Source: Pirellulales bacterium
GTDB taxonomy: Bacteria; Planctomycetota; Planctomycetia; Pirellulales; UBA1268
Direction: 5' to 3'
NCBI GenBank assembly: GCA_044344765.1
Contig: JBIJCJ010000002.1
Span: 1 to 44,478 of the forward strand
Length of the DNA: 44,478 bases
The first letter of the stretch is position 1. Each line of letters starts with the position of its first letter. The position numbers were made by a program, and so were the translations under genes. Below the pieces are notes generated by a model. The model saw only the letters and a program-made list of their open reading frames with translations, was not told the DNA's origin and made no database searches. This document shows, in pieces, positions 1,867 through 31,629 of the stretch.

Positions 1867-1881
1867 ACTGCTGCAGGGAGT

Positions 1882-2157
1882 CGTACGGCTCACACTTGAT
1901 CCTCGCGCATGGTCGGCTTTGTCCCGATAGTGGAACAGACATCGGGCGTGACCACGCTTCGGAAGCCCCCGGCGGGAGCCGGGGGGTGACGGGCTGCGCC
2001 GGGATGAGGGGCTGCGCCGTGAAGACGGGTCGCCCCGCGGGTTTTGGGAGAACGCGGGAAGGCGATCCACAAGTCCACGGAGTGGACCGCGTCACCCCCG
2101 GGCTTCCGCCCGGGGCTTTTGGGGAGGAACGTGCGAGGATCAAGTGTGTGCCGTATC
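1882..2157. mobile_element. 276-bp non-coding element bounded by ~27-bp terminal inverted repeats (MITE-like, or a long-stem structured RNA)
   Basis: The reverse complement of 1882-1909 (cgtacggctcacacttgatcctcgcgca) matches 2131-2157 (gtgcgaggatcaagtgtgtgccgtatc) with about 3 mismatches. The interior holds further GC-rich inverted segments and no credible ORF. Confidence 0.55.
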
Positions 2158-2185
2158 AGTCGCGGCGAGCGGCAGTTTCCAACGA

Positions 2186-2707
2186 TCACGATCCCATCAT
2201 CGCGGCGAGCGACCGGGCCGGCAGGAAGAGCCGGTAGGGATTGCCCGGCAATTCCAGGAAATCCCACCGCCGGTAAAAACGCTTGGCTCGTTCATCGACG
2301 CAGTCGAGGATCACGGCTACGAACGCAAATGTGCGGCCAGCGTCGTGGCAATCCCGGAGCGCCTGCGCGAGCAACCGGTCGCCGAGCCGGCTCCCCTGGT
2401 GGCGACGACTGACTCCCAGCCAGGCAACGACGGCCACAGGGAGTCCGCGACGCGGGAGTTTTCTGGCGAATTCAGCCGGCAGGTCGCCGAAATCCACCTG
2501 CCCTGTCGCCAAGGTGTAATACCCTGCAGTGTGACCATCCGGGCCAACCAGAACCTTCGTCGATGACAGCCGCTTGGACTGGTGTTGCAACGCCTTGGTA
2601 TGCAGCCAGTCATTGACCTCGATCTGCCCGCAATCAAACAATCCGCGAGCACGAGATCGGCCGAGGCCCTCGAGGGATAACCCTTGCGGAAACACGACGC
2701 CGCTCAC
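2186..2707 (-). CDS. tacT: GNAT-family acetyltransferase toxin (TacT/AtaT-like)
   Basis: GNAT core ...VAWLGVSRRHQGSRLGDRLLAQAL...RFYRRWDF. A GTG start at 2707 overlaps the antitoxin stop by 4 nt (GTGA). The ATG at 2782 is the alternative start. Confidence 0.75.
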   Translation of the reverse strand: MSGVVFPQGLSLEGLGRSRARGLFDCGQIEVNDWLHTKALQHQSKRLSSTKVLVGPDGHTAGYYTLATGQVDFGDLPAEFARKLPRRGLPVAVVAWLGVSRRHQGSRLGDRLLAQALRDCHDAGRTFAFVAVILDCVDERAKRFYRRWDFLELPGNPYRLFLPARSLAAMMGS

Positions 2708-3000
2708 CGCGCCCCTCGCATCATCGCGCCGAGCCGCCGCTGTGCTGCCGTCAATGCCCGAGGCGACTGGAGCGCCTGCCAAAAGGCTAACTGCTCGGTA
2801 GGCGTCAGGGTGATGGTGCTGTCACGGGCGCTCGCCGCCTCGCGCCGTGCCTGCGGCACCGTGACCGTTCGGACGTAGTCGCTGACGCTGATCCGGCGCA
2901 ATTCAGCTGCGGCCGCCAGCGCCTGCTTGCTTTCTGCGTCCAGCCGAACCATGAGCGTGCTCGACGTTGGGGCGACTTTTGTTTTTTGTGAACGTGGCAT
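2704..3000 (-). CDS. tacA: DUF1778 / ribbon-helix-helix antitoxin (TacA-like)
   Basis: 98 aa, containing ...LMVRLDAESKQALAAAAELRRISVSDYVR... and a C-terminal toxin-binding-like tail. It sits immediately upstream of the GNAT gene and overlaps it. GGAGGG lies 6 nt before the ATG. Confidence 0.75.
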   Translation of the reverse strand: MPRSQKTKVAPTSSTLMVRLDAESKQALAAAAELRRISVSDYVRTVTVPQARREAASARDSTITLTPTEQLAFWQALQSPRALTAAQRRLGAMMRGAR

Positions 3001-3019
3001 TGGCGTCCCTCCGGCTTCG

Positions 3020-3047
3020 AGTGTATTGCATAACGCTATACGAGCAA
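3020..3047 (-). promoter_or_regulatory. candidate sigma-70-type promoter and imperfect palindromic operator for tacAT
   Basis: The minus strand reads TTGCTC-N16-TACACT. The imperfect palindrome gtattgcataacgctatac (3023-3041) sits in a locally AT-rich leader. Confidence 0.3.
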
Positions 3048-3060
3048 GGCCGGGGCGGGG

Positions 3061-3099
3061 GCGACCACGGCCAACGCCCGCCGGGTGTTCGACTGCTGA
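3061..3099 (+). repeat. right copy of the 39-bp direct repeat (a relic tatD 3' end)
   Basis: 37 of 39 positions match 1828-1866. It ends 6 nt before the stop of the convergent kinase gene. Confidence 0.85.
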
Positions 3100-3105
3100 G
3101 CGGAG

Positions 3106-4680
3106 TCAGCCGCGGCGCAGGCGGCCGACCTGGAAGTCGGCGATTGCCGCCGCGCTGACGACGAGCACGGCCACGATCGCGGCCACGTTCCAGCGGAATG
3201 CGGCGGGGTCCGTGGCCAGCAGGATGGCGTAGCCGGCGAGCGCAGCCGCCGCGGCGATCCTCACCAGGCGGCGGTCGAGCCACAGCCCGGCCGCGGACAC
3301 GAGGACCGGGTGGGCGGCGACGAGCGGACTGTCCGCACCGCCCACCATCACCAATAGCGCGGTCACGAACGCCGCGTCGGTGACCACGAACGCGATGCCG
3401 GCCTGCCGCAGCGACAGCCGGCGGATCCCGAGCCACTCGCAGGCCGCCGCACAAGCCGCCCACAGGCCGAGGCCGATGGCGACCGGGCGGTAGAACGGCA
3501 CGGTCGTGGGATCGCCGAGGCAGCGGGCCGCGACGATGGCGATCGTGCCGAGGATGGCGGCCACCCGGAATCCGGCCGCGGGGTAGCGGCGCAGCACGCG
3601 GCCCAGGCGGTGCAACGGGCCGCCACCAGGCGGGGCGATGCGGTCGCCGCGGAGCCAGGCCTCGAGATCGTCGCCGACGGCCGCGGCCGTCGGATACCGG
3701 CGGGCCGGATCCTTCTCCAGGCATCGGAGGCAGATCTGCTGGAGCGCCGTCGGCACCTCCGGATGGAGCCGCCGCGGAGGCACGGGCTCGCGCTCCAGCA
3801 CGTTCATGACCACGAGCAGCCGTGTGTCGCCGGAGAAGGGCGGCCGGCCGGTGAGGGCCGTGTAGAGGATCGCTCCCAGGCCGTAGACGTCGCTGCGGGC
3901 GTCGAGGCCGCGGACTCGGCCTGCGGCCTGCTCCGGGGCCATGTACTCCGGCGTGCCGAGCACCGTGCCGGTGGCGGTAACGCCGTCTTCCGTGGCCGCG
4001 TCGCGGGCCAGGCCGAAGTCTGCCAGGTGTGGTGTGCCTGATGCGTCGAGCAGCACGTTCGAGGGCTTGAGGTCGCGGTGCAGGATGCCGCAGTCGTGGA
4101 GGTGGTGCACGGCCCGCGCCACCGCCGCAATCACGGTCGCCGCCGCGCGGGGCGACAGCGGCCCGGCCCGGAGGCGGGAGCCGAGGTCGTCCCCCGCGAC
4201 GAGATCCATGGCGAAGTAGAGCTGGCCGTCGTGTTCCCCGGCGTCGTGGATGGCGACGATCCCCGGATGTCGCACGCGGGCCGCGAGCCGGGCCTCGGCG
4301 AGGAATCGCCGCCGCTGCTCCGCGGTCGCGAACGCGCCCGCCGACAGCAGCTTCAGGGCCACGTCGCGGCCGAGCCGCTCGTGGCGGGCCCGATACACCA
4401 CGCCCATGCCGCCCCGCCCGAGCTCGGCGCCGACGGCGAACGGCCCGAAGCGCCGGCCGGTGAGCGATTCCGCGCCAGCCGCATGGGCCGCGTCGGGCGC
4501 GACGGTCGAGGCGAGATCGTCGAGGCCGCGGAGGCAGGCCGTCCACGCGGCGAGGGGGGGGCAGGCGGCGAGCAGGCGCCGTTCTTCAGCCGCGTCGGCC
4601 GCCTGGATCGCCGCCAGGTAGCGATCGAGAAGATCGGGATCGACCTCCGCGGCGGCAGCCGGCTCATCGGGCCGCGTCAT
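3106..4680 (-). CDS. Ser/Thr protein kinase with a C-terminal polytopic membrane domain
   Basis: Hanks kinase motifs: GRGGMGVVYRARH, VALK, HRDLKPSNVLL, DFGLAR, GTPEYMAPE. The C-terminal ~190 aa form several hydrophobic helices. The ATG at 4680 overlaps the sigma gene stop (ATGA). Confidence 0.85.
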   Translation of the reverse strand: MTRPDEPAAAAEVDPDLLDRYLAAIQAADAAEERRLLAACPPLAAWTACLRGLDDLASTVAPDAAHAAGAESLTGRRFGPFAVGAELGRGGMGVVYRARHERLGRDVALKLLSAGAFATAEQRRRFLAEARLAARVRHPGIVAIHDAGEHDGQLYFAMDLVAGDDLGSRLRAGPLSPRAAATVIAAVARAVHHLHDCGILHRDLKPSNVLLDASGTPHLADFGLARDAATEDGVTATGTVLGTPEYMAPEQAAGRVRGLDARSDVYGLGAILYTALTGRPPFSGDTRLLVVMNVLEREPVPPRRLHPEVPTALQQICLRCLEKDPARRYPTAAAVGDDLEAWLRGDRIAPPGGGPLHRLGRVLRRYPAAGFRVAAILGTIAIVAARCLGDPTTVPFYRPVAIGLGLWAACAAACEWLGIRRLSLRQAGIAFVVTDAAFVTALLVMVGGADSPLVAAHPVLVSAAGLWLDRRLVRIAAAAALAGYAILLATDPAAFRWNVAAIVAVLVVSAAAIADFQVGRLRRG

Positions 4681-5354
4681 GGCGTCGCCTCGACGCCAGA
4701 AAACTCCGCGGGCAGCCGCTCCTTGAGGGAGGCGATGGCCCGCATCCACAGCATGCGACAGGCGCCGCTCGAACGGCCCATCCGCTGCGCCACCTCCTCG
4801 AAGGGGAGCCGTTCGATGTTCCGCAGGAAGAGCACCTCGCGGTGGTCGTCGGCCAGCCCCTCCATCGCCGCGGCGAGCAGCAGTTCCTGCTCCCAACGGA
4901 TCACCCGCCCGCTCGGCGACGAGGCGGTGTCGATCGGGTGCTCGTGCCAGCCGTGCGACGCGTCGTCGTGCGCGGCCAGCGGCACCTCGCGGCCCGCGTC
5001 GCGCTTCGCCGTGCCCCGGTAGCGCTTGGCGGCATCGAAGGCGTTGTGGGCGACGATCCGTTTCAGCCAGCCGAGCCACTCCTGCGGCGTCTCCCCCGCG
5101 AAGCCGTCGAACCCGCGATGCGCCTCGAGGAGCGACTGCTGCACGACGTCGGAGGCATCGACCTTCGCCCGCAGCCGGCGCTGGAGATGAAACCGCGCGG
5201 CGGTGGCGACGAAACTTCGACAGGCTCCGAACAGCCGATTGCGGGCCGCCGCGTCACCGGCCCGCGCGGCGGCCAGCCAGCCCGCGATCCGCGCGGCGTC
5301 GCCCGCGTCGGCGGATGGCGGGGCGGCGGAGGAGGGCAAGGGAGCATCCGGCAT
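4677..5354 (-). CDS. ECF-family RNA polymerase sigma factor (kinase-linked type)
   Basis: Sigma-70 region 2 (DVVQQSLLEAHRGFDGF...) and region 4 (REVLFLRNIERLPFEEVAQRMGRSSGACRMLWMRA). The start is either the ATG at 5354 or the ATG at 5405. Confidence 0.8.
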   Translation of the reverse strand: MPDAPLPSSAAPPSADAGDAARIAGWLAAARAGDAAARNRLFGACRSFVATAARFHLQRRLRAKVDASDVVQQSLLEAHRGFDGFAGETPQEWLGWLKRIVAHNAFDAAKRYRGTAKRDAGREVPLAAHDDASHGWHEHPIDTASSPSGRVIRWEQELLLAAAMEGLADDHREVLFLRNIERLPFEEVAQRMGRSSGACRMLWMRAIASLKERLPAEFSGVEATP

Positions 5355-5485
5355 GAGAGGAGCACCATTTCGCGGCCAGGCCACCCGAAAAAAGCCGCGT
5401 GACATCCCCTTCGGGCCGTCGCCTGATCAGGGGAGCGGCCCGCCCGACGCGGGTCGAGCCCCCGGCAGGATACACCGTGACCGCG

Positions 5486-6316
5486 ATGACAACCCAGCCA
5501 CGAACGACCCGCCGCGGATCCCACGGGGCCGCCGCCGCGTCGCCCGCGGACGGCCCGATGATCGCCCTGGAAAACGTGGCCAAGGCCTACGGCGGCCGGC
5601 AGGTGCTCCCGGCGACCTCGCTGGCCGTCGCCCGGGGCAGCACCACGGTGCTCATCGGCCCCAGCGGCTGCGGCAAGAGCACGCTGCTGCGGATGATCGT
5701 GGGGCTCGTCACGCCCGACCAGGGCACGGTGACGATCGACGGCCGGCGGCTCGAGGCCGCGTCGATGGCCGACCTGCGGCGGCGGATCGGCTACGTGATC
5801 CAGGATGGCGGGCTGTTTCCGCATCTCACCGGCCGCGACAACGTCGGCCTGCTCGCGCGGCACCTGGGCTGGGAGCCGGCGCGGATCGCCGCGCGGATCG
5901 CGGAGCTCGTCGCCCTCACGCGGCTGCCCGAGGCCGCGCTCGATCGCTTTCCGGCCCAGCTCTCGGGAGGTCAGCGGCAGCGGCTGGGAATCATGCGGGC
6001 GCTGATGCTCGACCCCGCCGCGATCCTCCTCGACGAGCCGATGGGGGCGCTCGACCCGCTCGTGCGGTACGACCTCCAGGAAGACCTGCGGCGGATTTTT
6101 CGCGAGACCGGCAAGACGGTCGTCATGGTCACGCACGACATGGGCGAGGCCGGCTTCTTCGGCGACGAGGTGCTGCTGCTGGGCGACGGCCGCATCGTGC
6201 AGCGCGGCACGCTCGACGACCTGATCCACGCCCCGGCCGACGACTTCGTGCGCCGGTTCGTGTCGGCCCAGCGGTTCCCGGGCCTGTCTGGCAGTGAAGG
6301 GAGGAACGCATCGTGA
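5486..6316 (+). CDS. ABC transporter ATP-binding protein (osmoprotectant/glycine-betaine type)
   Basis: Walker A GPSGCGKST, signature LSGGQRQR, Walker B ILLDEP. The ATG at 5558 is the alternative start. Confidence 0.85.
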   Translation: MTTQPRTTRRGSHGAAAASPADGPMIALENVAKAYGGRQVLPATSLAVARGSTTVLIGPSGCGKSTLLRMIVGLVTPDQGTVTIDGRRLEAASMADLRRRIGYVIQDGGLFPHLTGRDNVGLLARHLGWEPARIAARIAELVALTRLPEAALDRFPAQLSGGQRQRLGIMRALMLDPAAILLDEPMGALDPLVRYDLQEDLRRIFRETGKTVVMVTHDMGEAGFFGDEVLLLGDGRIVQRGTLDDLIHAPADDFVRRFVSAQRFPGLSGSEGRNAS

Positions 6317-6384
6317 GCGGGCGCATGAGAAGGACTGTCGTTGATTCGTGCATGATCCTTTCCGGCACGACGGTTCCAGAAACT

Positions 6385-6490
6385 CCCTCTCCCTCTGGGA
6401 GAGGGGTCGGGGTGAGGGTGCAGGGAATCGGCGCAGCCTCGGAAGCACCCTCACCCGGCCTGCGGCCGGCCTCTCCCAGAGGGAGAGGCG
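6385..6490. repeat. family-B palindromic repeat element (copy 1)
   Basis: ccctctccctctgggagaggggtcggggtgagggtgc ... gcaccctcacccggcctgcggccggcctctcccagagggagaggcg. The arms are inverted repeats. A near-identical copy lies at 21189-21310. Confidence 0.8.
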
Positions 6491-6492
6491 AG

Positions 6493-8073
6493 ATGGCGAG
6501 GTCACAGCGCACCCTGGCGTGTGCGAGATTTCCATCGAGAAGCCGAAAGCGGTCCGGTCGTCTGCCGAGCCGAATCCTCGCCGCGGTCCTGGTGGTCGCG
6601 ACGATGATGGCGCCGATCGCGGCCGCCGCCCCCGCGGCGGGCCCGGTGGTGCGGATCGGCTCCAAGCCGTTCACGGAAGGGATCGTGCTCGGCGAGCTGC
6701 TCGCGGGCGTCGCCCGGCAGGCGGGGGGCGCCGCCGAGCACCGGGCGGCGCTCGGTGGCACGCAGATCGTGTTCGCGGCCCTCGAACGCGGGGAGATCGA
6801 CTGCTACGTCGAGTACAGCGGCACCTTGGAGCGGGAGATCCTCCGCGCCGAAAGCGTCCGGAGCCCCGCGGACGTGGCGGCTGCGCTTGCCCGCCGGGGT
6901 CTTGCCCGGACCGGGCCGCTGGGCTTCGACAACACCTACGCCCTGGGCATGAAGGAGACGGTGGCGGCGCGGGCCGGCATCGAGACGATCTCCGATCTCG
7001 CGGGCCGCGACCTCGCCATCGCGCTCAGCGACGAGTTCGTGCGGCGGGCCGACGGCTGGCCGGCGGTTCGCGATGCCTACGAACTGCGGCAGACCCCGCG
7101 GGTGCTCGATCACGCGCTGGCTTATCGCGGCCTGGAAAGCGGCCACGTCGCGGTCACCGACCTCTACGCCACCGATCCCGAGGTGCGGGCCCACGAGCTG
7201 CGGATCCTGCGGGACGACCGGGGCGTGTTTCGCGAATACAAGGCGTTCGTGCTGTATCGCGCCGACCTCGCGGAGCGGGCGCCGGCATTCCTGGCGGCGC
7301 TCGGGCAGCTCGAGGGGACGATCGATCCGGCGGCGATGCGCGAGATGAACGCCCGGGTGCTGCTCGACGGCGAGCCGGAGCGGACCGTGGCGGCCCGCTT
7401 CCTCCGGGATCGGTTCGGCTGGGAAGTGGCCGACGACACGACGCCCGCCTGGCTGATCGTGGCCCGCGACGTGGGGCGGGCCACGCTCCAGCACCTGGCG
7501 CTCGTGGCCGCGGCATTGATTGCGGCGGTGGCCGTCGCCGTGCCGCTGGGGATATACGCCCATCGCCGGCCGCGGCTGGCCGCCGGCATCCTCGGCGTGG
7601 TCGGCATCCTGCAGACGATTCCGTCGATGGCCGTGCTCGTGTTCATGGTGCCGCTGGTGGGCCTGGGCTGGAAGCCGGCCGTGGTGGCGCTCTTTCTCTA
7701 CGGCCTCCTGCCGATCGTCCGCGGCACGTTCAACGGGCTGGCCGGAATCCCGCAGCAGCTCCGCGAGTCGGCCGAGGTGCTCGGCCTCGACGGGCGTTCC
7801 CGCTTGCGGCTCGTGGAGCTGCCGCTGGCCTCGCGATCGATTCTCGCGGGCATCAAGACGGCGGCCGTGATCGCCGTGGGCACGGCCACGATCGGCGGGC
7901 TGATCGGCGCGGGCGGCTACGGCGAGGCGATCCTGGCCGGAATCCGCCGGGCCGACGTGGGACTGCTCATGCAAGGCGCGGTGCCCGCGGCGGTGCTCGC
8001 CCTGCTGATTCAGGCGGCCTGCGATGGTCTGGAGCGGCTTGTGGTTCCCGCAGGGCTGCGGGCCGGTGGGTAG
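6493..8073 (+). CDS. fused ABC transporter: OpuAC-type substrate-binding domain plus permease (glycine betaine/choline family)
   Basis: The N-terminal half, ...[16 protein letters not shown]...[12 protein letters not shown]..., resembles quaternary-amine binding proteins. The C-terminal half is a 5-6 TM permease with an EAA-like loop ([20 protein letters not shown]). I chose the ATG at 6493 because the upstream part of the ORF is the family-B repeat. Confidence 0.8.
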
Positions 8074-8123
8074 AATCCTCCGCGTCGGGGAAGTCTCAAC
8101 GTGGCGAGAAGTGGTGGCCGGAC

Positions 8124-10637
8124 ATGATCGAGTTTTGTGCGTTTGCGATCGTCGTGCTCGGTGTGCTCGTGGTCCGCATGACCGGCGTGCTGCGCGAAAT
8201 CCAGGAGGCGCAGCGCACCCTGCTCGAGCGGCAGCGGCAGATGGACGCCCTGCTGACGGCGAGTTTCACGGGTCGGGATCAGGCCACGTCTTCCGAGCCG
8301 GCGGTCGTGATCGTGCCCCCGTTCGCCGGGTCCGCCACCCCTGCGCCGATGCCGTCGCCAGTGCCGGCCGCAGAGCCGCCTCCGCTGCCGGCTGTTACGG
8401 CCGCCGCTCCGCAGGCCAAACCGTTCGCCGGTGGGTTCACGGACCTCACGTCCGCCGATCTCGACGTTGCCATTTCCGCACGCGAGGTGGTGCCGGCCGC
8501 GGCCCGCGTCGTCTCGCCGCCACGGCAGCCCTTGCCCCGCGCGGTTCCGAGCCGCTTCGAGACGGCCGCCCGCGACACGCTCGGCAGGATCTGGAACTGG
8601 ATCATCGTCGGTGAGGATCACATCCCGGAGGGGGTTTCCACGGAGTACGCGGTCGCGAGCCAGTGGCTGCTGCGGCTCGGGATCATCGTCCTCGTCGCCG
8701 GCATCGGCTTCTTTCTCAAGTGGTCGATCGACCGCGGCCTGCTCGGGCCCCAGGCCCGCGTGGCCCTCTCCACCGCGGCCGGGCTCGGAATGCTGATCCT
8801 CGGCGCGCGGCTGCTCGGCGGCCGCTACGGAGTGCTGGGCCAAGGCTTCCTCGGCGGCGGCCTGGCCACTCTGTACTTCAGCGTCTTCGCGGCCCACCGG
8901 CTGTTCGGCCTCGTCGACGTCGTCACCGCCTTCGCGCTCATGGCCGCCGTCACCATGCTGGCGGGCGGGATCGCGGTGCGTTTCAACTCGATGCTCGTGG
9001 CCGTGCTCGGGATCATCGGCGGCTACGGCACGCCGCTGATGTTCACGACGGCGGACCCCAACCTGCCGGTCCTGTTCGGCTACCTGCTCGTGCTCGGCTG
9101 CGGCGTGCTGGCGATCTGCTTCTGGCGGAACTGGCCGCTGGTCAACCTGCTGGCGTTCGTGGCGACCTGGTGCCTGGTGCCGCCGGCGCTGGTGCAGTAC
9201 GAGACGAGCCAGTTTCGCGAGGTCTATCCATTCATCGTCGGCTTCTTCGTGCTCTTCTCGACGATGACCTTCCTTTACAAGGTGGTCCGCGGCACGCCCG
9301 CGACGGTCCTCGACCTGTTCGCCCTGTTCGCCAACGCGGCCGTGTTCTTCGGGATCTCCTTCTGGATGGTGGACGACGCCTTCGGCCGGCGGCAGGTGGC
9401 GCTCGTGACGCTCGGCCTGGCCGCCTTCTACACCCTCCACGTGCTCTTCTTCCTCCGGCGCGGGGGCGTGGACCGCGGCCTGCTCGTCTCCTTTCTCGGC
9501 CTCGCCGCCACGTTCGTGGCCGTGACGATGCCGCTGGTGCTCTCGCGGCAGTGGGTCACGGCCAGCTGGGCGATCCAGGCGGTCGTGCTCCTGTGGATGG
9601 CCGAGCGGCTCGAGAGCGGCATCGTGAGACGCATGGGGCTCGCGCTCCTCGGCATCGTGTTCGTGCGGTTCTGCGGCCTTGATCTGGGCCGTACGTTCCT
9701 GCCCGGCGGCAGCGTCGCGGCGGCCGCGGCCGAACTGCCCGTGGGCGGCTACCTGCGGCTCCTCGCCGAGCGGGCGATAGCCTTCGGTATTCCCATCGCG
9801 GCCTTCGGCGTGGCGGCTCGGCTCGTCGGCCGCACGCCGCGGCCCGCCGACCCTGCCAAGTCCGACCGCGGGCACGTCGGTCTCGCCTCATTCCTCTGGC
9901 TCGCCGGGATCGCGGCCCTGCTGTTCTATGTGCACCTTGAAGTCGATCGCACGGCGGAGTTCTTCTTCCCCGCGGCGCGGCTACCGCTGCTGTCGATCGT
10001 CTGGGTCGCCATCGGGGCGATCTTTCTCCGGGAATACGCGGTCGGCGGCAGCTCGTTCGCGTTGGGGCTCGTCGGCTGCGTGGTGATGGCGGTGCTCTTG
10101 AAACTCGTCGCCTGGGACCTGCCGGCCTGGGGCGTGGACGAACGGTTCGTGGCAGGCCCGGGGTACTCGCTGCTCGATGCCGGGCTGCGGGCCCTGGACT
10201 TCGGGGCAGTGATCGCCTTCATGGTGTCGGCCTACGCCGTCACCGGCAGAGCCCGGGCCCGCACGGATGCCCGGCCGCTGCTGGCCGTCGCCTGCCTGGG
10301 CACGCTGTTCGCCTACCTGACCCTGGAGACGAACTCGTTCCTGGCCGCGTATTATCCGGGGTTCCGCGCCGGCGGCGTGTCGATCGTGTGGGCGGTCTTC
10401 GCGCTCGCGCTCGTGCTGGCGGGCATCGCCCGCAACGTCGGGCCGCTCCGGTTGGTCGGGCTCGGGCTGTTCGCGATCGTCTCGGGCAAGGTGTTCCTCC
10501 ACGATCTGGCGAGTCTCGACACGTTCTGGCGGATCGTGGCGTTCATCATCCTCGGCCTGCTGCTGATCGCCGGTTCGTTCGCGTACCTGAAGTATCGCGA
10601 GAAGTTCATGGTCAGGGCCGGGGAGGGGAGGTCATGA
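8124..10637 (+). CDS. large polytopic membrane protein, DUF2339-like
   Basis: N-terminal TM helix, then a coiled segment, a Pro/Ala-rich linker, and about 20 TM helices. This matches the DUF2339 architecture. The ATG at 8124 lies inside the read-through ORF 6348-10637. Confidence 0.7.
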
Positions 10638-11536
10638 GCCGCCCGCATGCGATCCTGATCACCGCGGCGGTTCTTGTCGCCGCGGCCGCGGAGGCCGCCG
10701 CCGGCGGGCGGCGTGGGAAGCCGCTCGTGCTGCCGCCGCTCGAGGCGACGGGCCTCGTCGCGGTGCGGCTCGATGCCGACGTCCATGCCGCCGCCGCCGA
10801 CGGCTACGGCGACCTGCGGATCCTGGATGCTCAGGCCGCCGAGGTTCCCTACATCGTGCGGGACGTGATCACGACGGACCTCTTGATCGGCGGCTTTCGC
10901 GTCGTTCGCGAGCCCGATGAGCGGGCGACGCGGATCACGGTCGATGCCCGCCGGCAGCCCGTCACCGAGTTCACGATCGCCACCGATTCCCGGAACTTCA
11001 GCCGGTCGCTGACGGTGACGCGGCCGGCCGAGCCCGATGGCGACGGGCCACGCCGCCCGCGCAGGCCGATCGCCACGGCCACGATTACACGGATCGACGT
11101 CGCGGGCCTGCGCCGCGAGCAGCTGGCGATCGGGCTGCCCGAGAGCCGCCTGGAGACGTACGAGCTCGTGATCGACGACGGCGACAGCCCGCCACTCGCC
11201 GTGACCGGCGTCACGGCCCGCGGCCCGGCCCGCGAGGTCGTGTTCCTGGCCGAACCGGGCGCGGCCTACCGGCTGGCCTACGGCGGTGAGCTCGCTCCGC
11301 CGCGGTACGACACGGCCGCCATCCGCACGGCGGTTGCCGCCCGGGTGGTCGCGACGCCCGCGACGCTCGGAGCGGAGTCGGTCGTCGCGACGCCACAGCC
11401 CGCGGCCGATCCGCTGTGGCTGCTCGGCGACGGCCGCTTCCAGATCGCCGTGATCGCGACGCTGGCGATCATCCTCGCCGCCGCGCTGTTCCGAGCCGCG
11501 CAGCGGATCGACGCGGCCCCACCATCACCGGAGTGA
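10634..11536 (+). CDS. DUF3999-like secreted/anchored protein
   Basis: Signal peptide, ...[16 protein letters not shown]..., ...[17 protein letters not shown]...[17 protein letters not shown]..., and a C-terminal TM anchor. The ATG overlaps the DUF2339 stop (ATGA). DUF2339/DUF3999 pairing is a common synteny. Confidence 0.55.
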
Positions 11537-11538
11537 CC

Positions 11539-12951
11539 ATGACCGCGACCGCACGGAGGCAGGCGCCGTACGTTTTCTTCGGCCAGACGACGTCGCTGTG
11601 CGGCGAGTGCCTGGCGCTCGTGCCGGCCAAGATCGTGATCGAGGAGGGCCGGGTCTACTACCACAAGCGATGCCGCACCCACGGGCCGCAGAAGGTGCTC
11701 GTGTCCACCGACGCCGCCTACTGGCGGCTGTGCCACGACTACCTCAAGCCGGGCGACCGGCCGCTGGCCTTGCAGACGCACACCGAACGGGGCTGCCCCT
11801 ACGACTGCGGACTCTGCCCTGACCACGAGCAGCACTCGTGCCTGGCACTCATCGACGTCAACGAGGCCTGCAACCTCACCTGCCCGGTCTGCTTCTCCGA
11901 CTCCTCGCCGCAGCGGTCGCTCCACCGGCCGCTGGCCGAGATCGAGCGGATGATGGACGCGCTGGTGCGGAGCGAGGGGGAGCCCGACCTGCTGCAGCTT
12001 TCCGGGGGCGAGCCGACGATCCACCCCGAGATCCTGGAAATCCTCGCGGCGGCCAAGCGGCGGCCGATCCGCCACGTGATGCTCAACACCAACGGCATCC
12101 GCATCGCCGAGGATCCCGAGTTCGTGAAGCGGCTCGCCGATCTGCGGCCGGGGTTCGAGGTCTATTTGCAGTTCGACTCGCTGCGGCCGGAGGCTCACCT
12201 CAATCTCCGCGGCGCGGACCTGACGCGGATCCGCCGCCAGGCCATGGAGAACCTGGAGCGGGCCGGCATCTCCACGACGCTCGTCGTGGTGGTGAAACAG
12301 GGGGTCAACGACGCCGAGATCCCGGCGATCATCGACCACGCCCTCCAGTGGCGGTGCGTCCGCGGCGTCGTCCTCCAGCCGATCCAGGACGCCGGCCGCA
12401 ACGAGGGCTTTGATGCGTCAAAGGATCGTTTTCCCCTCTCCGCCATCCGGCGGCGGATCGTCGATTCCGGCGGCTCGTTCGGGGAAGGCGACATCATCCC
12501 GCTCCCCTGCAATCCGGAGAGCATCGCCATCGGCTACGCCCTGCGGAAGGGAACGCAGATCGCCCCGGTGACCTCGTTCTTTCCCCGGGAGCTGCTCGTC
12601 GAGGCCCTGCCGAATGCGATCACGTTCGAGAAATACCCCGATCTGCACAAGCAGGTGCTCGAGTTCTTCTCGCTCGCGACCGCCGAGTGCAACAACGAGA
12701 AGAAGCTCGCCGAGCTGCTCTGCTGCCTGCCCGAGGTGCCCCTGCCGGCGGGGCTGGGGTATGAAGACACCTTCCGGGTGGTGATCGTGGAGTTCATGGA
12801 CGCCCACAATTTCTGCCTCGGCCGCGTGAAGCGGTCGTGCATCCACTTCGTCACGCCGGAAGAGAAGATCATCCCGTTCGAGACCTACAACCTGTTCTAC
12901 CGCGACGCGGCCGCGCAGGCCCGGATGCGGCGGTCGCTGGAGGGGCGATGA
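11539..12951 (+). CDS. radical SAM enzyme with an N-terminal Cys-rich ribbon and an auxiliary-cluster motif
   Basis: CX3CX2C core CNLTCPVC followed by SGGEPT. N-terminal CGEC...HKRCRTHG. Extra motif GCPYDCGLCPDHEQHSC. Conserved tail ...EFMDAHNFCLGRVKRSCIHF...IPFETYN. The start lies 2 nt after the previous stop. Confidence 0.85.
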   Translation: MTATARRQAPYVFFGQTTSLCGECLALVPAKIVIEEGRVYYHKRCRTHGPQKVLVSTDAAYWRLCHDYLKPGDRPLALQTHTERGCPYDCGLCPDHEQHSCLALIDVNEACNLTCPVCFSDSSPQRSLHRPLAEIERMMDALVRSEGEPDLLQLSGGEPTIHPEILEILAAAKRRPIRHVMLNTNGIRIAEDPEFVKRLADLRPGFEVYLQFDSLRPEAHLNLRGADLTRIRRQAMENLERAGISTTLVVVVKQGVNDAEIPAIIDHALQWRCVRGVVLQPIQDAGRNEGFDASKDRFPLSAIRRRIVDSGGSFGEGDIIPLPCNPESIAIGYALRKGTQIAPVTSFFPRELLVEALPNAITFEKYPDLHKQVLEFFSLATAECNNEKKLAELLCCLPEVPLPAGLGYEDTFRVVIVEFMDAHNFCLGRVKRSCIHFVTPEEKIIPFETYNLFYRDAAAQARMRRSLEGR

Positions 12952-13391
12952 GGGGATTGCTGATCGTGCTCTGTACGTTGGGAACGGTCGCTGCAACGCT
13001 GGCGGGCGGCTGCGGCTTGCTGTTCAGTTTCGCGATGGCGGTGGCGGACCAGAACCGGGGCGAGGCCGCCGGGGGCGCCCTGATGATCGCCCTACCGGTA
13101 CTTGCCGTTACCGGCGCGCTAGCGCTGGCAAACATCGCGCTGATCGCCGCGATCGCCAATGGCCGGGCGCCGCGCCGCAATGTCTGGTTCCTGCTCCTCG
13201 CGATCGTGGACCTCGCCATCGCGAGCGTCCTTGCGGCGGCGGGATTCGCCGGGCAGGGGCCGGTGAACCCGGGCGATGCCTTAACCCTTTTCCTGCCGGT
13301 CATGCTGGCGGTCAAGGGCGGGCTCACGCTCCTGCTTCCCGCGCAGCCGCGCCAGCTGCCACCGGGTGAGAACCCGGAGGAGGCTGCATGA
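12948..13391 (+). CDS. small 4-TM membrane protein, paralog 1
   Basis: MRGLLIVLCTLGTVAATLAGGCGLL.... ATGA overlap with the radical SAM stop. It shares its N-terminus and the ...LAN(I)..., ...RR..., ...D.A.A..., ..VKG.L.. landmarks with the next ORF. Confidence 0.6.
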   Translation: MRGLLIVLCTLGTVAATLAGGCGLLFSFAMAVADQNRGEAAGGALMIALPVLAVTGALALANIALIAAIANGRAPRRNVWFLLLAIVDLAIASVLAAAGFAGQGPVNPGDALTLFLPVMLAVKGGLTLLLPAQPRQLPPGENPEEAA

Positions 13392-13840
13392 GGTGGCTCC
13401 TCGTCGTGCTGACGATGATCGTGGCCCTCGGGGCACTGTTTTCCGGAGGGTGCGCCGTGCTGTCGGTCGGCCAGTACCTTTGGCACGGGCCGCGCGGCGA
13501 GCTTCCGGGCGTGCAGCGGGCCATCGCCTGGATTTCCGCCGGCGTGGGACTCGCGGCCGCCGCGGTGCTGGCCGCCAACATCTGGGTCTTGCTGGCGGCC
13601 TTCGGGCCGCCGTCGCCCCGACGCCGCCTGATCGCGTACGTGCTGGCCTGCATGGACGTCGCCACGGCCGCTGCGGCGCTGGCATGGATCGTGTGGGCCG
13701 ACGGCTGGCACTGGGCTGACTGGCAGTGGTCCTTGCTGGCCAAGGCGGGAGCCGTGGCGCTCGGCGTGAAGGGTGTTCTCATCGGCGCGGTCGTCGGCCG
13801 ATGGTGGGCTTCCGGCACCAGTCGCGTGGGCGATCCGTGA
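13388..13840 (+). CDS. small 4-TM membrane protein, paralog 2
   Basis: MRWLLVVLTMIVALGALFSGGCAVL.... ATGA overlap upstream and GTGA overlap downstream. Confidence 0.6.
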   Translation: MRWLLVVLTMIVALGALFSGGCAVLSVGQYLWHGPRGELPGVQRAIAWISAGVGLAAAAVLAANIWVLLAAFGPPSPRRRLIAYVLACMDVATAAAALAWIVWADGWHWADWQWSLLAKAGAVALGVKGVLIGAVVGRWWASGTSRVGDP

Positions 13841-14550
13841 ACGTCCACACGCAATTCGACATCGCCGCGGCCACCGCCGCGGCGGCGATGACCGTCGCCT
13901 GCTTCTTCTGGCGGCTCAAGGACGCGGCGGCACGGATCGAGCACGCCGGCTTCGGCTACGCCTTCGCCCTCGTGGGCGGTGCGGCCTTGGGCGGCTACGC
14001 GGCGGGCACCGCGAACCTGTGGCTTGCGGGGGAGCCGGGGGTGGCCCGGAGCATCGTGGGGGCGCTCGCCGGGGCGATCGCGGCGATCGAACTCTTCAAG
14101 CGGGCCCGCGGGATCACCGGCTCGACCGGGCTGATCTTCGTGCCGGCCTTCGCCACGAGCGTCGCCATCGGCCGCTGGGGCTGTTTTTATTCGGGGCTCA
14201 CCGACCACACCCACGGCTGCCCCACGACGCTCTCCTGGGGCCACGACTTCGGCGACCAGATTCCCCGCCACGCGGTGCAGCTCTACGAGTCGGCCGCGAT
14301 GGCCGCGTTCCTCATCTTTGCCCTCGTGATGCTCGCCCGCCGTGAGCCGTTCTTCATGAGGAACGGCTTCTACCTGATGGTGTTCTGGTACGCGGCGCAG
14401 CGGTTCGGCTGGGAGTTTCTCAAGCCCTATGCATCGCTGCTTGGGCCGCTCAACCTTTTCCATCTCGTCTGTCTGGGGCTGATGGGGTACGCCATCTGGA
14501 TGCTGCGGCGAAGTCGGCGGTCACAGGCCGCCTTACGAGGAAGGCCGTGA
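13837..14550 (+). CDS. divergent prolipoprotein diacylglyceryl transferase (Lgt)-family membrane protein
   Basis: GRWGCFYSG in place of the canonical GRxGNFxNxE, and RHAVQLYES in place of HPxQLYE. About 7 TM helices. The GTG start at 13837 overlaps the upstream stop. Confidence 0.65.
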   Translation: MNVHTQFDIAAATAAAAMTVACFFWRLKDAAARIEHAGFGYAFALVGGAALGGYAAGTANLWLAGEPGVARSIVGALAGAIAAIELFKRARGITGSTGLIFVPAFATSVAIGRWGCFYSGLTDHTHGCPTTLSWGHDFGDQIPRHAVQLYESAAMAAFLIFALVMLARREPFFMRNGFYLMVFWYAAQRFGWEFLKPYASLLGPLNLFHLVCLGLMGYAIWMLRRSRRSQAALRGRP

Positions 14551-14685
14551 GGGGTTGCCCATGCCCCGGGAGCCGGCGTAGCTGACCAGCGGAGGCAGGA
14601 TGCCGGAGCGCAGGCAGCTCCGAGAGAGCGGAGCCCAGGATGGGCGCAGCGAACGTCCGGCGATGGGGCATGGGCGACCCCGAAC
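14547..14685. repeat. family-C ~135-bp element with terminal inverted repeats (copy 1)
   Basis: ggggttgcccatgcccc (14551-14567) against ggggcatgggcgacccc (14664-14680). Its reverse complement aligns along its whole length with 28673-28809. Confidence 0.65.
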
Positions 14686-14761
14686 CCGCACCACCACGGA
14701 GCCTTTCACCGCCTGCCGCCGCGGGTAGGATGACTGCTTCGTTCTCCCTGGAGCACCCCTC

Positions 14762-15343
14762 ATGGTCCGCACCCCTTCCACGATGCTGCCGCTGGGCACC
14801 GTCGCCCCCGAGTTCGAACTCCCCAACGTCGACGGCCGAATCGTCGACTATGCCGCCGCCGCCGGCCCGCGGGGCACGGTCGTGATGTTCATCTGCAACC
14901 ACTGCCCGTTCGTGAAGCACGTGGCCGACGAACTGGCCCGGCTCGGCCACGAGTACCTGCCCCGCGGCATCGGCTTCGCCGCCATCAGCTCCAACGACGT
15001 CGCCAGCCACCCGGCCGACTCGCCCGAGCAGATGGTGCACGAGGCCGAGGAGCGGGGCTATCCGTTCCCGTATCTCTACGACGAGACGCAGGAGGTGGCG
15101 AAGGCCTATCACGCCGCCTGCACGCCCGACTTCTACCTCTTCGACGCCGACCGCAGGCTCGTGTATCGCGGCCAGCTCGACCCGAGCCGTCCGGGCGGCG
15201 ACCTCCCGGTGACGGGCCGCGACCTGCGGGCCGCGATCGACGCGCTACTCGCCGGTCAGTCGCCGGTGGCCGCGCAGATCCCGAGCCTGGGCTGCAACAT
15301 CAAGTGGAAGCCGGGCAATCACCCGGCCTACTTCAATCCGTGA
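14762..15343 (+). CDS. thioredoxin-fold protein (AhpC/TSA-like thiol-disulfide oxidoreductase)
   Basis: APEFELPNVDG..., CNHCP redox motif, ...TPDFYLFD.... Confidence 0.8.
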   Translation: MVRTPSTMLPLGTVAPEFELPNVDGRIVDYAAAAGPRGTVVMFICNHCPFVKHVADELARLGHEYLPRGIGFAAISSNDVASHPADSPEQMVHEAEERGYPFPYLYDETQEVAKAYHAACTPDFYLFDADRRLVYRGQLDPSRPGGDLPVTGRDLRAAIDALLAGQSPVAAQIPSLGCNIKWKPGNHPAYFNP

Positions 15344-15358
15344 CCGCCGAAAGCGGCG

Positions 15359-15622
15359 TCACCGCGGACGCGGGGCGTCGCCGGGGCGGGCGGGGCCGCG
15401 GTTGGCGAACTTGCCGATGTCCTGCGTGTCGCCCGGCTCGAGCCGCGAGGCCCGCAGGTTCTCCCGCTGGATCGCCTCGTACACCTCCTGGCGGTGCACA
15501 GGAACCTCGGACGGGGCGTTGATTCCGAGCCGGACTTTGTCTCCCCGGATGTCCACGATCGTGACGACGATGTTGTCGCCGATCATGATGCTTTCGTCAC
15601 GTTGTCTGGAGAGCACGAGCAT
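15359..15622 (-). CDS. csrA: carbon storage regulator CsrA (with a ~25 aa C-terminal extension)
   Basis: MLVLSRQRDESIMIGDNIVVTIVDIRGDKVRLGINAPSEVPVHRQEVYE matches the CsrA signature. Confidence 0.9.
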   Translation of the reverse strand: MLVLSRQRDESIMIGDNIVVTIVDIRGDKVRLGINAPSEVPVHRQEVYEAIQRENLRASRLEPGDTQDIGKFANRGPARPGDAPRPR

Positions 15623-15684
15623 CGCGGGGGTCCTTCCTGATCCATGCGTGGCGTCGGCTTTCCTCCGCCGACGGTCACTTGTGA

Positions 15685-16125
15685 TTATGCGCTCTTCCTG
15701 AGCGGCGGACGGTCTTGATTGAGTTCGTATTGCAGAGGCAGCTCGCCGCTCGCAACGACTTGACGGCCGGTGCGGGCTTCGAGGTTGATGACGATCGGCG
15801 CTTTCAAATTGAGCGTGAGGGTTTTGCCGTTGGTGCCGACCACCAGCACGACCTGGGCCTGGCGGATGTCGGCGACGGCGAGGGGGGTGAGCTCGCTACG
15901 CGGGATCCGCACCTGGTAGTCGGGGACGAAGCGGCGCGGGCTGACCACCGCGATGGCCACGTCGCCGCGGGTCGTGCTCTGCAGCCAGCCGAGCGCGTCG
16001 TTGGTGGCGTCGGCGAGCAGGGCCCAGTCGCGGCAATCCTCGAGGCCGGGCAGTCCGCTGGCGAAGTGGATGACGTCGCCCATGTCGACGTCGATCCGTC
16101 CGAACCTGGTGGTGTTGATGCGCAT
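15685..16125 (-). CDS. fliW: flagellar assembly factor FliW (CsrA antagonist)
   Basis: ...FASGLPGLED...W..LQS....D.AIAVVSP..F.PDY.....LNLKAPIVIN... matches the FliW family. It lies directly upstream of csrA. Confidence 0.85.
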   Translation of the reverse strand: MRINTTRFGRIDVDMGDVIHFASGLPGLEDCRDWALLADATNDALGWLQSTTRGDVAIAVVSPRRFVPDYQVRIPRSELTPLAVADIRQAQVVLVVGTNGKTLTLNLKAPIVINLEARTGRQVVASGELPLQYELNQDRPPLRKSA

Positions 16126-16400
16126 GACGCTGGCACTCCTTTGCCTTCCCGGCGAGGCGGGCGGCTTGCCCGGCTCCGCGGACTCCCGTCCGCAGGAGTT
16201 TTGATCGGCAGGCAGGGGGGGCGAGGTGGAGAAAAAAGGACTGGCAAAAAAAGGAGGGTGCGGAAGGCCTTGTCGCGTGGGGACTTCCGGGGAATGGCGG
16301 GGTTTGTTCCGGGGCGTTGACCCGCCGCCAAATTCCTCACAATCGTCATTCCGGGCGATGCGGGCGGTGCCCGACGTCCGCCTGACATGGAGGCTGCGGC

Positions 16401-17075
16401 ATGCGCTGGATGGTGGCGATGGTGGGCTTGGGCATCTGCGGCTGCTCGTCGGCGGCGTACGACGCCGCCTATATGAAGCGGGTCGCGGCGCACCGGGTGG
16501 CCGGCGAGTTCGTGGCCCTGCGGTCCGCGGCCACGTCCGTGGCCGACGGGCGGGCCGAGTTGCGGCTGCCGGCGCTGCTGGTCAACCAGCTCGACGGCAG
16601 TGAGACACCGGCCCGCGCCGTGCCCCCGTTGATCCGCGAGTTTCCGGGGTTCGCGGCCGCCTACGAGGCCCAGGTCGAGTCGGCCGCCGGCCGGCTTCCG
16701 ATCGTGCTCACCGTGGGCGTGGTACCGGCGGCGGAGCGGCGCGATGCCGCCGAGGCGATCCTGCGGCAGGTGCGGCAGGACGAGGATTTCAAGCAGGCGG
16801 CGTGGAGCAAGGGGCGGGAACTGGCCGACGAGTCGGCGGCGATCCGCAAGTGGGACGTCCTCGAGCTCAAGGGACCGCAGCCGTTTCAGGTGACGAAGGC
16901 CGACATCACCGACGAGAAGCGGCTGCCGGGCACGACCGCGGTCTGGATGGCCGCCGATGCGGGGCAGAAGGCGTGTGTGATCCTCGCCTGGCGGGTGCCC
17001 GACGACGTCGCGCAGAGCCTGCCACTGCCCGCGATCGCCGAGCTCACGGCCCGCACCGTGCGGCTCCCCGAGTGA
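16401..17075 (+). CDS. hypothetical secreted protein or lipoprotein
   Basis: N-terminal MRWMVAMVGLGICGCSS (signal peptide with a Cys). No recognisable domain. Confidence 0.5.
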   Translation: MRWMVAMVGLGICGCSSAAYDAAYMKRVAAHRVAGEFVALRSAATSVADGRAELRLPALLVNQLDGSETPARAVPPLIREFPGFAAAYEAQVESAAGRLPIVLTVGVVPAAERRDAAEAILRQVRQDEDFKQAAWSKGRELADESAAIRKWDVLELKGPQPFQVTKADITDEKRLPGTTAVWMAADAGQKACVILAWRVPDDVAQSLPLPAIAELTARTVRLPE

Positions 17076-30055: not shown

Positions 30056-30425
30056 CGTCAACGATTACGCTGTCAACGATTACGCCTGTACTTTTTCTTT
30101 TCTAACGATTACGCCTGTCCTTTTTCTTCTTTTCTTCTTTACGCCTGTCCTTTTGGCTCTTTTGGCTCTTTTGGCTCTTTTCCTTTTGGCTTTGGGCTTC
30201 GCCTGTCCTTTTGGTCCCGTCTTCTATTACGCCTGTCCTTTTGGCTTTCGCGCCTGTCCTTTTGGCTTTTTCTTTTGGCTTTGGGCTTCGCCTGTCCTTT
30301 TGGTCCCGTCTTCTATTACGCCTGTCCTTTTGGCTTTTGGCTTTTCTTCCGCCTGTCCTTTTGGCCTCGCTTCTTCCGCCTGTCCTTTTGGCTTCTTTCT
30401 TCCGCCTGTCCTTTTGGCTTTTGGC
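30056..30425. repeat. AT-rich, strand-asymmetric array of ~11 copies of cgcctgtccttttgg, including an 89-bp internal duplication
   Basis: Units start at 30083 (variant), 30112, 30142, 30200, 30230, 30251, 30289, 30319, 30350, 30377 and 30403. Segments 30184-30246 and 30273-30335 are near-identical. aacgattacgc occurs 3 times at 30060-30114. Confidence 0.85.
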
Positions 30426-31612: not shown

Positions 31613-31629
31613 GTCACCACTTCCGCTGG

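Follow-up and report, generated by a model that had tools for sequence, protein, structure and literature searches.

The subject of this report is a run of six open reading frames (ORFs) on the plus strand, at positions 8124-14550 of a 44,478-nucleotide (nt) stretch of Pirellulales DNA (contig JBIJCJ010000002.1; hereafter, the window), and in particular the last four of these genes, which encode a radical S-adenosylmethionine (rSAM) enzyme, two small membrane proteins and a divergent paralogue of the lipoprotein-modifying transferase Lgt. An earlier note, made from the same sequence, had treated all six genes as a single envelope-remodelling machine. The analysis described here divides the run into two independent modules and leads to a proposal for what the second of them might do.

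The run starts with a polytopic membrane protein of the DUF2339 family (8124..10637; about 20 hydrophobic segments), followed by a DUF3999-like protein with a signal peptide and a C-terminal transmembrane (TM) segment (10634..11536). Next come an rSAM enzyme of 470 amino acids (aa) that resembles Tes/GDGT-MAS and has no TM segment (11539..12951), small membrane protein 1 (P4; 12948..13391; 147 aa) and small membrane protein 2 (P5; 13388..13840; 150 aa), each with four hydrophobic segments, and the Lgt-like protein (13837..14550; 237 aa). The DUF2339 and DUF3999 genes overlap by an ATGA (10634-10637), DUF3999 and rSAM are joined as TGA-CC-ATG around 11534-11541, with a gap of 2 nt (11537-11538), and the remaining three junctions, from rSAM to the Lgt-like gene, are ATGA (12948-12951), ATGA (13388-13391) and GTGA (13837-13840). 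When the sequence was read again, every coordinate that the earlier note gave for the six same-strand ORFs and their five tight junctions was recovered, and a simple hydropathy scan agreed that five of the six products are membrane proteins, with hydrophobic segments in all but the rSAM enzyme. Shine-Dalgarno-like GGAG or GGAGG sequences lie 5′ of most of the starts, and the GTG start of the Lgt-like gene aligns with the M-N-V-H start of its homologues. The window has a G+C content of about 70%. A promoter scan of positions 5000-16500 yielded no promoter-like site, which is uninformative either way, and a terminator scan of the same region yielded terminator-like sites at about the frequency expected from shuffled sequence, which is equally uninformative; promoters inside coding sequence are compatible with the tight junctions. 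Scans of the window for tRNAs and Rfam families gave no matches.

Profile searches bore out most of the family assignments of the earlier note. DUF2339 (PF10101) scores 300 bits against a gathering score of 33.6, the rSAM protein matches the Pfam families Radical_SAM and Zn_ribbon_HMPTM, and the Lgt-like protein matches PF01790 with 61.4 bits against 24.9, but only over profile positions 85-238 of 240. DUF3999 (PF13163), in contrast, reaches 27.8 bits and thus falls under its gathering score of 30, because the copy in the window carries an internal deletion of about 166 aa; it is nevertheless clearly orthologous to the full-length proteins encoded next to DUF2339 in relatives.

A conserved unit of rSAM, small membrane proteins and Lgt-like protein

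The conserved part of the run corresponds to positions 11539-14550, that is, the rSAM enzyme, the small membrane proteins and the Lgt paralogue. When GTDB, with each species represented by a single genome, was searched with an alignment of the rSAM enzyme, relatives turned up in at least 595 species, and 80 loci were retained. Neighbouring genes were identified by phmmer searches of the window proteins against the six-frame ORFs of 83 loci. The Lgt-like gene adjoins the rSAM gene in 81 of these 83 loci, the two misses being contig ends, and clustering of all flanking ORFs detected no other families conserved around the pair. In Alphaproteobacteria, the Lgt-like gene comes first, followed by rSAM and then the small ORF, with an overlap at each junction; in planctomycetes, rSAM leads, one or more small ORFs come next, and the Lgt-like gene is last. 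The genes of the module share one orientation and are translationally coupled.

The two enzymes also occur as single polypeptides. The 733-aa protein P0244 is a fusion of LGT, Zn-ribbon and Radical_SAM domains, and clustering of proteins at 90% identity gives at least 57 clusters of LGT-rSAM fusions, which are 656-825 aa long and 48-88% identical to P0244. These fusions come from Tepidisphaerales, Verrucomicrobiota and other groups, on contigs of up to 6.2 Mb. They constitute Rosetta-stone evidence for joint action of the two enzymes. The C-terminus of Lgt reportedly lies in the cytoplasm, according to the topology of Pailler et al. (2012), so that the fusion would place the rSAM domain in the cytoplasm as well. 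The near-universal adjacency, the natural fusions and a conserved cysteine motif in the small proteins (see below) support the view that the three components form one functional unit, and to this extent the grouping of these genes in the earlier note stands.

Two of the loci with fusions contain an additional gene, for a conserved multi-TM, Cys-rich protein of 432-474 aa, which overlaps the start of the fusion gene (L165:3580-5004 and L166:3703-5001). One of the two proteins contains a rhodanese-like stretch (CNGGIQS) that scores below threshold (19 bits against 22.2), and the other lacks this Pfam hit. We take the stretch as no more than a lead, one that points to possible sulfur-transfer chemistry in the branch concerned.

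The module has a broad distribution that includes Aquisphaera giovannonii (CP042997.1), Opitutaceae and a plasmid of Chondrinema (Bacteroidota; NZ_CP111057.1). The rSAM enzymes of Planctomycetota and Alphaproteobacteria are 72-78% identical, far above the level usual between phyla, which, together with the plasmid copy, suggests horizontal transfer, very strong constraint, or both. The linkage to Lgt has a limit: it is seen down to rSAM identities of about 46% (Chondrinema) and is already lost at 39%. On the Mycolicibacterium vanbaalenii plasmid NZ_CP126902.1 (L170), the Tes-like rSAM of 39% identity has as neighbours CcdA, a protein disulfide oxidoreductase, a methyltransferase and another rSAM, with no Lgt, so that the superfamily also occurs in a second kind of uncharacterised context.

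Features of the enzymes and the small proteins

The homology of the rSAM enzyme, the core enzyme of the module, to the archaeal tetraether synthase GDGT-MAS (Tes; Methanocaldococcus jannaschii MJ0619, PDB 7TOL) is established by a direct sequence match (E=1.9e-64) that extends over two stretches. Three of the four metal sites of GDGT-MAS, an enzyme that couples lipid tails by functionalising their terminal carbons, are conserved, with cluster motifs that match those described for the archaeal enzyme (PMC9433317): a rubredoxin-type site (C21x2C24x20C45x2H48, that is, CX2CX20CX2H), an N-terminal cluster (GC86PYDC90GLC93PDH, for GCPYDCGLCPxH) and the CX3CX2C motif (C111x3C115x2C118). All these metal-site residues are invariant in our alignment of the enzyme (A1). 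Assignment to a named family is another matter. The best-scoring one, over the full length, is TrsS (NCBIfam NF045646), with 297.5 bits against a cut-off of 490, and the rSAM ORF differs from TrsS also in having no in-frame TGA; the NCBIfam model for Tes gives 263.7 bits against a cut-off of 450 and aligns over model positions 1-311 of 486 only. Ten other representatives of the superfamily, which comprises 653 representative clusters at E<=1e-30, likewise fall below both cut-offs. From Tes/GDGT-MAS, the enzyme differs further in being bacterial and linked to an Lgt-like protein. An AlphaFold2 model built from the shallow alignment A1 had a mean confidence (pLDDT) of 53.8, too poor for a fold search, and was not used. 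Database entries name the protein dihydro-6-hydroxymethylpterin dimethyltransferase or AlbA, and the Lgt-like protein prolipoprotein diacylglyceryl transferase; for this clade, all of these names are probably incorrect.

Another bacterial rSAM enzyme that has been proposed to couple lipid tails is Mss, the membrane-spanning lipid synthase of Thermotoga (Sahonero-Canavesi 2022). Mss, however, belongs to another rSAM lineage, and no Lgt-like partner or Cys-bearing mini-protein has been reported for it. No link to Lgt or to lipoproteins appears in a 2026 review of rSAM enzymes that modify lipids.

The Lgt-like protein has the fold of Lgt (phosphatidylglycerol:prolipoprotein diacylglyceryl transferase; EC 2.5.1.145) without being a standard Lgt. 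A direct phmmer search of the PDB with the protein found nothing, and a profile of 20 sequences was needed to reach the Escherichia coli enzyme (5AZB). The AlphaFold2 model (pLDDT 81.8) consists of seven long helices, in agreement with the 7-TM fold of Lgt (5AZB/5AZC), and a Foldseek search with this model returned 5AZB as the sole credible match (probability 1.00, TM-score 0.50). Lgt residues R143, Y235, R239 and E243 correspond to R113, Y185, R189 and E193, which are invariant in the Lgt-like proteins (sets of 77 and 18 homologues), and the RHPxQLYE stretch is kept as RHPVQLYE. In Lgt these four residues belong to the network that binds phosphatidylglycerol, the arginine pair R143 and R239 contacting the phosphate of the phospholipid. 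This conservation indicates that the enzyme probably still binds a glycerophospholipid. Other parts of the protein have changed. The Lgt signature G142-R-L-G-N146-F-I-N-G-E151-L-W-G154 reads G112-R-W-G-C116-F-Y-S-G-L121-T-D-H, so that N146 is replaced by C116 and E151 by L121, and H103 of the HGGL motif is replaced by V74 (aligned as S72-I-V74-G-A-L). The cysteine is itself a hallmark of the group: C116 is invariant among the 77 homologues, and GRxGC is found in 117 of 120 database homologues and in most of the LGT-rSAM fusions. The periplasmic head of Lgt, which in the E. coli enzyme comprises about 50 residues between TM4 and TM5 (PMC4728403), is reduced to about 25 residues (120-145) with a single 4-residue helix in the predicted model.

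The two small proteins have no family assignment in Pfam or NCBIfam, where searches gave sub-threshold noise only. They had been regarded as paralogues, and a cysteine motif in the first TM segment is indeed common to both (TLAGG-C22-GLLF in P4 and LFSGG-C22-AVL in P5; Cys22 codons at 13011-13013 and 13451-13453, respectively), but the similarity between them is weak (E=2e-4) and confined to the N-terminal 42 residues. P4 is similar over its full length to a 127-aa protein encoded after rSAM in Aestuariivirga (E=1e-7). An ORF with this motif was found within 1.2 kb after rSAM in 70 of 84 loci, in one to four tandem copies that encode 59-190 aa, compared with 9 of 1166 control windows (0.8%) subjected to the same scan. 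In the motif, [P/S/A]-G-[G/L]-C-[A/S/G/T]-L-L-F comes after a hydrophobic run; glycine occupies position -2 in 94% of the mini-proteins and cysteine is present in 100%, figures that reflect in part a search pattern that required the cysteine and restricted positions -2 and -1. The cysteine lies inside a hydrophobic span: the median number of uncharged residues is 19 on its N-terminal side and 10 on its C-terminal side.

In more distant systems, in which rSAM is about 46-55% identical, the cysteine is near the periplasmic end of the last TM segment of the small protein, with C-terminal ends such as ..LAFGLCITILKNLH, ..LAAGLCFAMAR, ..LTICGRSFL and ..GAGVCGSFF. In Aquisphaera giovannonii (L167, 6431-8210), two mini-proteins of 155 and 151 aa, with a 230-aa polytopic protein encoded between them, have an N-terminal, zinc-ribbon-like CxxC...CxxC arrangement and carry the cysteine in ..IYCS or ..AYCS at a C-terminal TM segment. 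The order common to these proteins, namely basic residues (inside), 13-25 hydrophobic residues, small residues and the cysteine, is, as read from the sequences, the logic of a lipoprotein signal peptide. The proposed acceptor thus resembles that of Lgt: a cysteine, preceded by small residues, where an in-to-out hydrophobic helix reaches the periplasmic side. The acceptors of the module would differ from those of Lgt in being dedicated mini-proteins with more hydrophobic residues after the cysteine and, often, leucine at position -1. Tandem arrays of one to four small, fast-evolving ORFs with one conserved motif beside an rSAM gene are also reminiscent of rSAM peptide-maturase cassettes of the kind found for ribosomally synthesized and post-translationally modified peptides; the small ORFs of the module, however, encode polytopic membrane proteins, no SPASM or RRE domain is present, and the partner is a lipid transferase.

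These observations bear on an explanation of the locus under which the Lgt-like gene would serve as the housekeeping lgt of the genome, next to genes for ordinary lipoproteins (the small proteins), with the rSAM enzyme an unrelated neighbour. The database name of the transferase agrees with this explanation, and both P4 (LAGGC22) and P5 (FSGGC22) formally satisfy a PROSITE-type lipobox rule (Cys at position 15-35, K or R within the first seven residues). Across the mini-proteins as a whole, however, this full rule is satisfied by 22 of 101 and the lipobox core [LVI][ASTVI][GAS]C by 37 of 101, and in 49 of 101 position -1 is leucine, which is incompatible with a canonical lipobox. The transferase reaches 23.1 bits against the cut-off of 118.9 of the lgt equivalog model (TIGR00544), its head domain is largely gone, and it is always beside the rSAM enzyme or, in the clusters described above, fused to it. 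Of the three replaced residues, H103 and E151 are those whose mutation inactivates E. coli Lgt, with proposed roles in lipobox-peptide binding and phosphatidylglycerol selection (PMC4728403). A housekeeping role is accordingly extremely improbable, and the earlier view of the protein as something other than an ordinary Lgt is upheld.

The DUF2339/DUF3999 pair and the rest of the window

The two 5′ genes of the run have a history of their own. DUF2339 and DUF3999 had been described as a widespread pair, and in a metagenome scan of DUF2339 neighbourhoods (80 loci) DUF3999 indeed follows DUF2339 in 74. The further claim that the pair is welded to the other four genes does not survive the same comparison: the rSAM cassette follows the pair in only 8 of the 80 loci, in all of which DUF2339 is at least 73% identical to that of the window, and phmmer searches of six-frame ORFs found neither DUF2339 nor DUF3999 in any of the 83 loci identified through rSAM.

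The relatives of the window allow the arrangement to be followed at a single site, between a TatD gene and an AhpC gene. In five of them (L085, L088, L090, L153 and L160), the pair and the cassette are arranged tightly as in the window, with 2-6 nt between DUF3999 and rSAM. In three (L086, L089 and L091), DUF3999 and the cassette are separated by a gene on the minus strand that encodes about 330 aa and is degraded in L091. In four (L002, L004, L005 and L084), the rSAM cassette comes directly after TatD, without the pair, and in L092 TatD and the pair are followed directly by AhpC, the site being otherwise the same with the cassette absent. The TatD-to-AhpC site is thus variable within this planctomycete clade. 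In addition, DUF3999 of the window lacks about 166 central residues, in frame, so that ..VRDVITTD jumps to LLIGGFRVV, compared with the 466-477-aa proteins of L085, L088, L092 and L160, and may be a decaying or shortened copy.

The interpretation of the six genes as one envelope-remodelling machine draws on the tight junctions in the window and in the five relatives with the same order. Against it stand the rarity of co-occurrence, the presence of either module alone at the same site, the opposite-strand gene between the modules and the internal deletion in DUF3999; for these reasons, the six-gene arrangement is best seen as a recent juxtaposition, and a single machine is very improbable. Positions 8124-14550 comprise two independent modules, set head to tail by a lineage-specific rearrangement. 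The earlier note would have given up its hypothesis if the adjacency occurred in this genome only. Several genomes share it, so that the letter of that statement does not apply; the confinement of the adjacency to a shallow planctomycete lineage agrees with its spirit. One practical consequence is the removal of a misleading functional link, as no function of DUF2339/DUF3999 can be inferred from this locus.

The pair forms part of a lineage-specific 9.7-kb block between TatD and rSAM (1867..11538), which encodes a GNAT protein, a Ser/Thr protein kinase and an ECF sigma factor (all on the minus strand), followed by an ABC ATPase, a fused OpuAC substrate-binding/permease protein, DUF2339 and DUF3999 (all on the plus strand), and which is missing from the relatives in which rSAM directly follows TatD. 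The kinase and sigma factor genes are adjacent (3106-5405) and accompany the pair in the block-bearing relatives L085, L086, L089, L090, L091 and L160. The ABC ATPase gene (5399-6316) overlaps the gene for the OpuAC-permease (6313-8073), the two specifying a glycine-betaine-type transporter that is found in some relatives only (L085, L086 and L090). Because this same-strand transporter gene ends at 8073, 50 nt from DUF2339, the upstream end of the putative operon is soft and somewhat arbitrary.

On the other side of the cassette, an AhpC/Redoxin-family gene (14762..15343, plus strand) begins 211 nt 3′ of the Lgt-like gene and belongs to the planctomycete backbone. It was considered as a member of the module and rejected, since it follows the planctomycete site with or without the cassette and is absent from the proteobacterial loci.

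Farther downstream, a REP-associated (IS200/Y1-type) transposase-like ORF on the minus strand (28949-29992) lies next to a degenerate tandem array (30057-30421) with the unit CGCCTGTCCTTTTGG; the kilobase concerned has the lowest G+C fraction of the window (0.59). CheB- and CheA-like genes (30608-33945) come after the array.

A proposed route of protein lipidation

What the conserved module does can be proposed from the properties of its components. We consider it about an even chance that positions 11539-14550 encode a conserved three-component membrane module in which lipid transfer to the cysteine of a mini-protein is coupled to radical tailoring of that lipid. The donor, the acceptor, the order of the steps and the product are those that we infer from the parts. 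The mini-proteins would be the substrates: much as Lgt modifies lipobox cysteines, the Lgt-like enzyme would take a glycerolipid moiety from a phospholipid of the outer leaflet and attach it to their buried cysteine. The Tes-like rSAM enzyme, which would dock on the C-terminus of the Lgt-like protein at the cytoplasmic face and which in many organisms is fused to it, would then direct a 5′-deoxyadenosyl radical at an unactivated carbon of the alkyl chain of the transferred lipid. Coupling through a C-C or C-S bond would leave the mini-protein with a lipid anchor that is cross-linked or spans the membrane. In more general terms, the module could be viewed as Lgt-type lipidation to which an rSAM partner and dedicated substrates have been added.

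Several observations weigh against this proposal of coupled lipidation and radical tailoring. At the positions of Met439 and Tyr459 of Tes, which are reported to be completely conserved in 1000 archaeal homologues (PMC9433317), the rSAM enzyme has V417 and F437, and alignment A1 shows no variation at either position. In the C-terminal region the cysteines occupy other places (C384, C395, C396, C426 and C434), and most of the candidate cysteines of the C-terminal cluster of GDGT-MAS are not kept. Because of these losses, the radical step may differ from the tail-to-tail coupling of the archaeal enzyme. Likewise, because H103 and E151 are replaced in the Lgt-like protein, both donor and acceptor may differ from those of Lgt. 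Instead of being substrates, the mini-proteins could serve as accessory subunits, and the filter for their motif came up empty in 14 of the 84 loci, some of which are contig ends or have sub-threshold candidates. Finally, for a cytoplasmic rSAM enzyme to act on a lipid of the periplasmic leaflet, access across the bilayer of a Tes-like kind has to be assumed.

The same residues enter into the two alternatives that keep a lipid as the target of the radical. Under the first, which we regard as unlikely though a serious contender, the module makes a free modified lipid, for instance a membrane-spanning or macrocyclic one, with the Lgt-like protein serving as a glyceryl transferase on a lipid acceptor and the mini-proteins as scaffolds or regulators. 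The homology of the rSAM enzyme to GDGT-MAS fits this possibility, as does the alteration in the Lgt-like protein of both the donor-selecting E151 and the peptide-binding HGGL. Moreover, bacterial Tes homologues, including those of "various Proteobacteria", have been suggested to synthesize branched glycerol dialkyl glycerol tetraether (brGDGT)-type lipids (Zeng et al., 2022; PMC8941075). What makes a free product less attractive is that a TM cysteine, with a lipobox-like n-region and h-region, is the one strong constant in mini-proteins that are otherwise variable and often multi-copy, and that the Met and Tyr residues invariant in the archaeal synthases are the ones replaced. Furthermore, hosts of the module such as Bradyrhizobium and Sphingomonas are not known to produce membrane-spanning lipids, which also counts against a free-lipid product.

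Under the second alternative, the rSAM enzyme would join a carbon of the lipid tail directly to the sulfur of the mini-protein cysteine, the thiol taking the place of the cluster sulfide, and the Lgt-like protein would deliver or position the lipid. Tes chemistry has an intermediate in which carbon is bonded to a sulfur of an auxiliary cluster (PMC9433317), the part of the rSAM enzyme that has been remodelled is precisely the C-terminal cluster region, and the cysteine is embedded in a hydrophobic span; all three points are compatible with such a reaction. It is, however, without precedent and would require a cytoplasmic enzyme to reach a TM-embedded thiol. Residues for binding the glycerol phosphate of the donor are, moreover, retained in the Lgt-like protein, which suggests that this protein catalyzes a transfer of its own. 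Direct coupling to the thiol is therefore quite improbable.

Returning to transfer by the Lgt-like enzyme followed by radical modification, a broader and more tentative version, which we hold to be possible but somewhat doubtful, is that the module represents an unrecognised lipidation pathway in at least five bacterial phyla, in which a Cys-variant Lgt and a Tes-type rSAM enzyme, frequently joined in one chain, would lipidate a TM cysteine and radically couple the alkyl chain or chains to give a protein-bound macrocyclic or membrane-spanning lipid. The earlier note had stated that no described system has this composition, and targeted full-text literature searching found no description of an rSAM/Lgt-like/mini-protein module either.

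If the proposal is correct, bacteria would possess a second Lgt-type route of protein lipidation, with its own substrates and an rSAM partner. Such a route would bear on lipoprotein biogenesis, an area of antibiotic targets, and on the enzymology of rSAM attack on unactivated lipid carbons. Hundreds of bacterial Tes homologues, among them those of the cultivable Bradyrhizobium, Rhodoplanes, Dongia, Aquisphaera and Chondrinema, also gain a concrete context in which their function can be tested; a role as brGDGT synthases has been proposed for these homologues without evidence. Were the protein-bound pathway to hold, a large clade of the "bacterial Tes homologues" that are used as brGDGT markers would not be synthases of free tetraether lipids, and if the clade acts on protein-bound lipid, counts of Tes in metagenomes would overstate the producers of brGDGTs.

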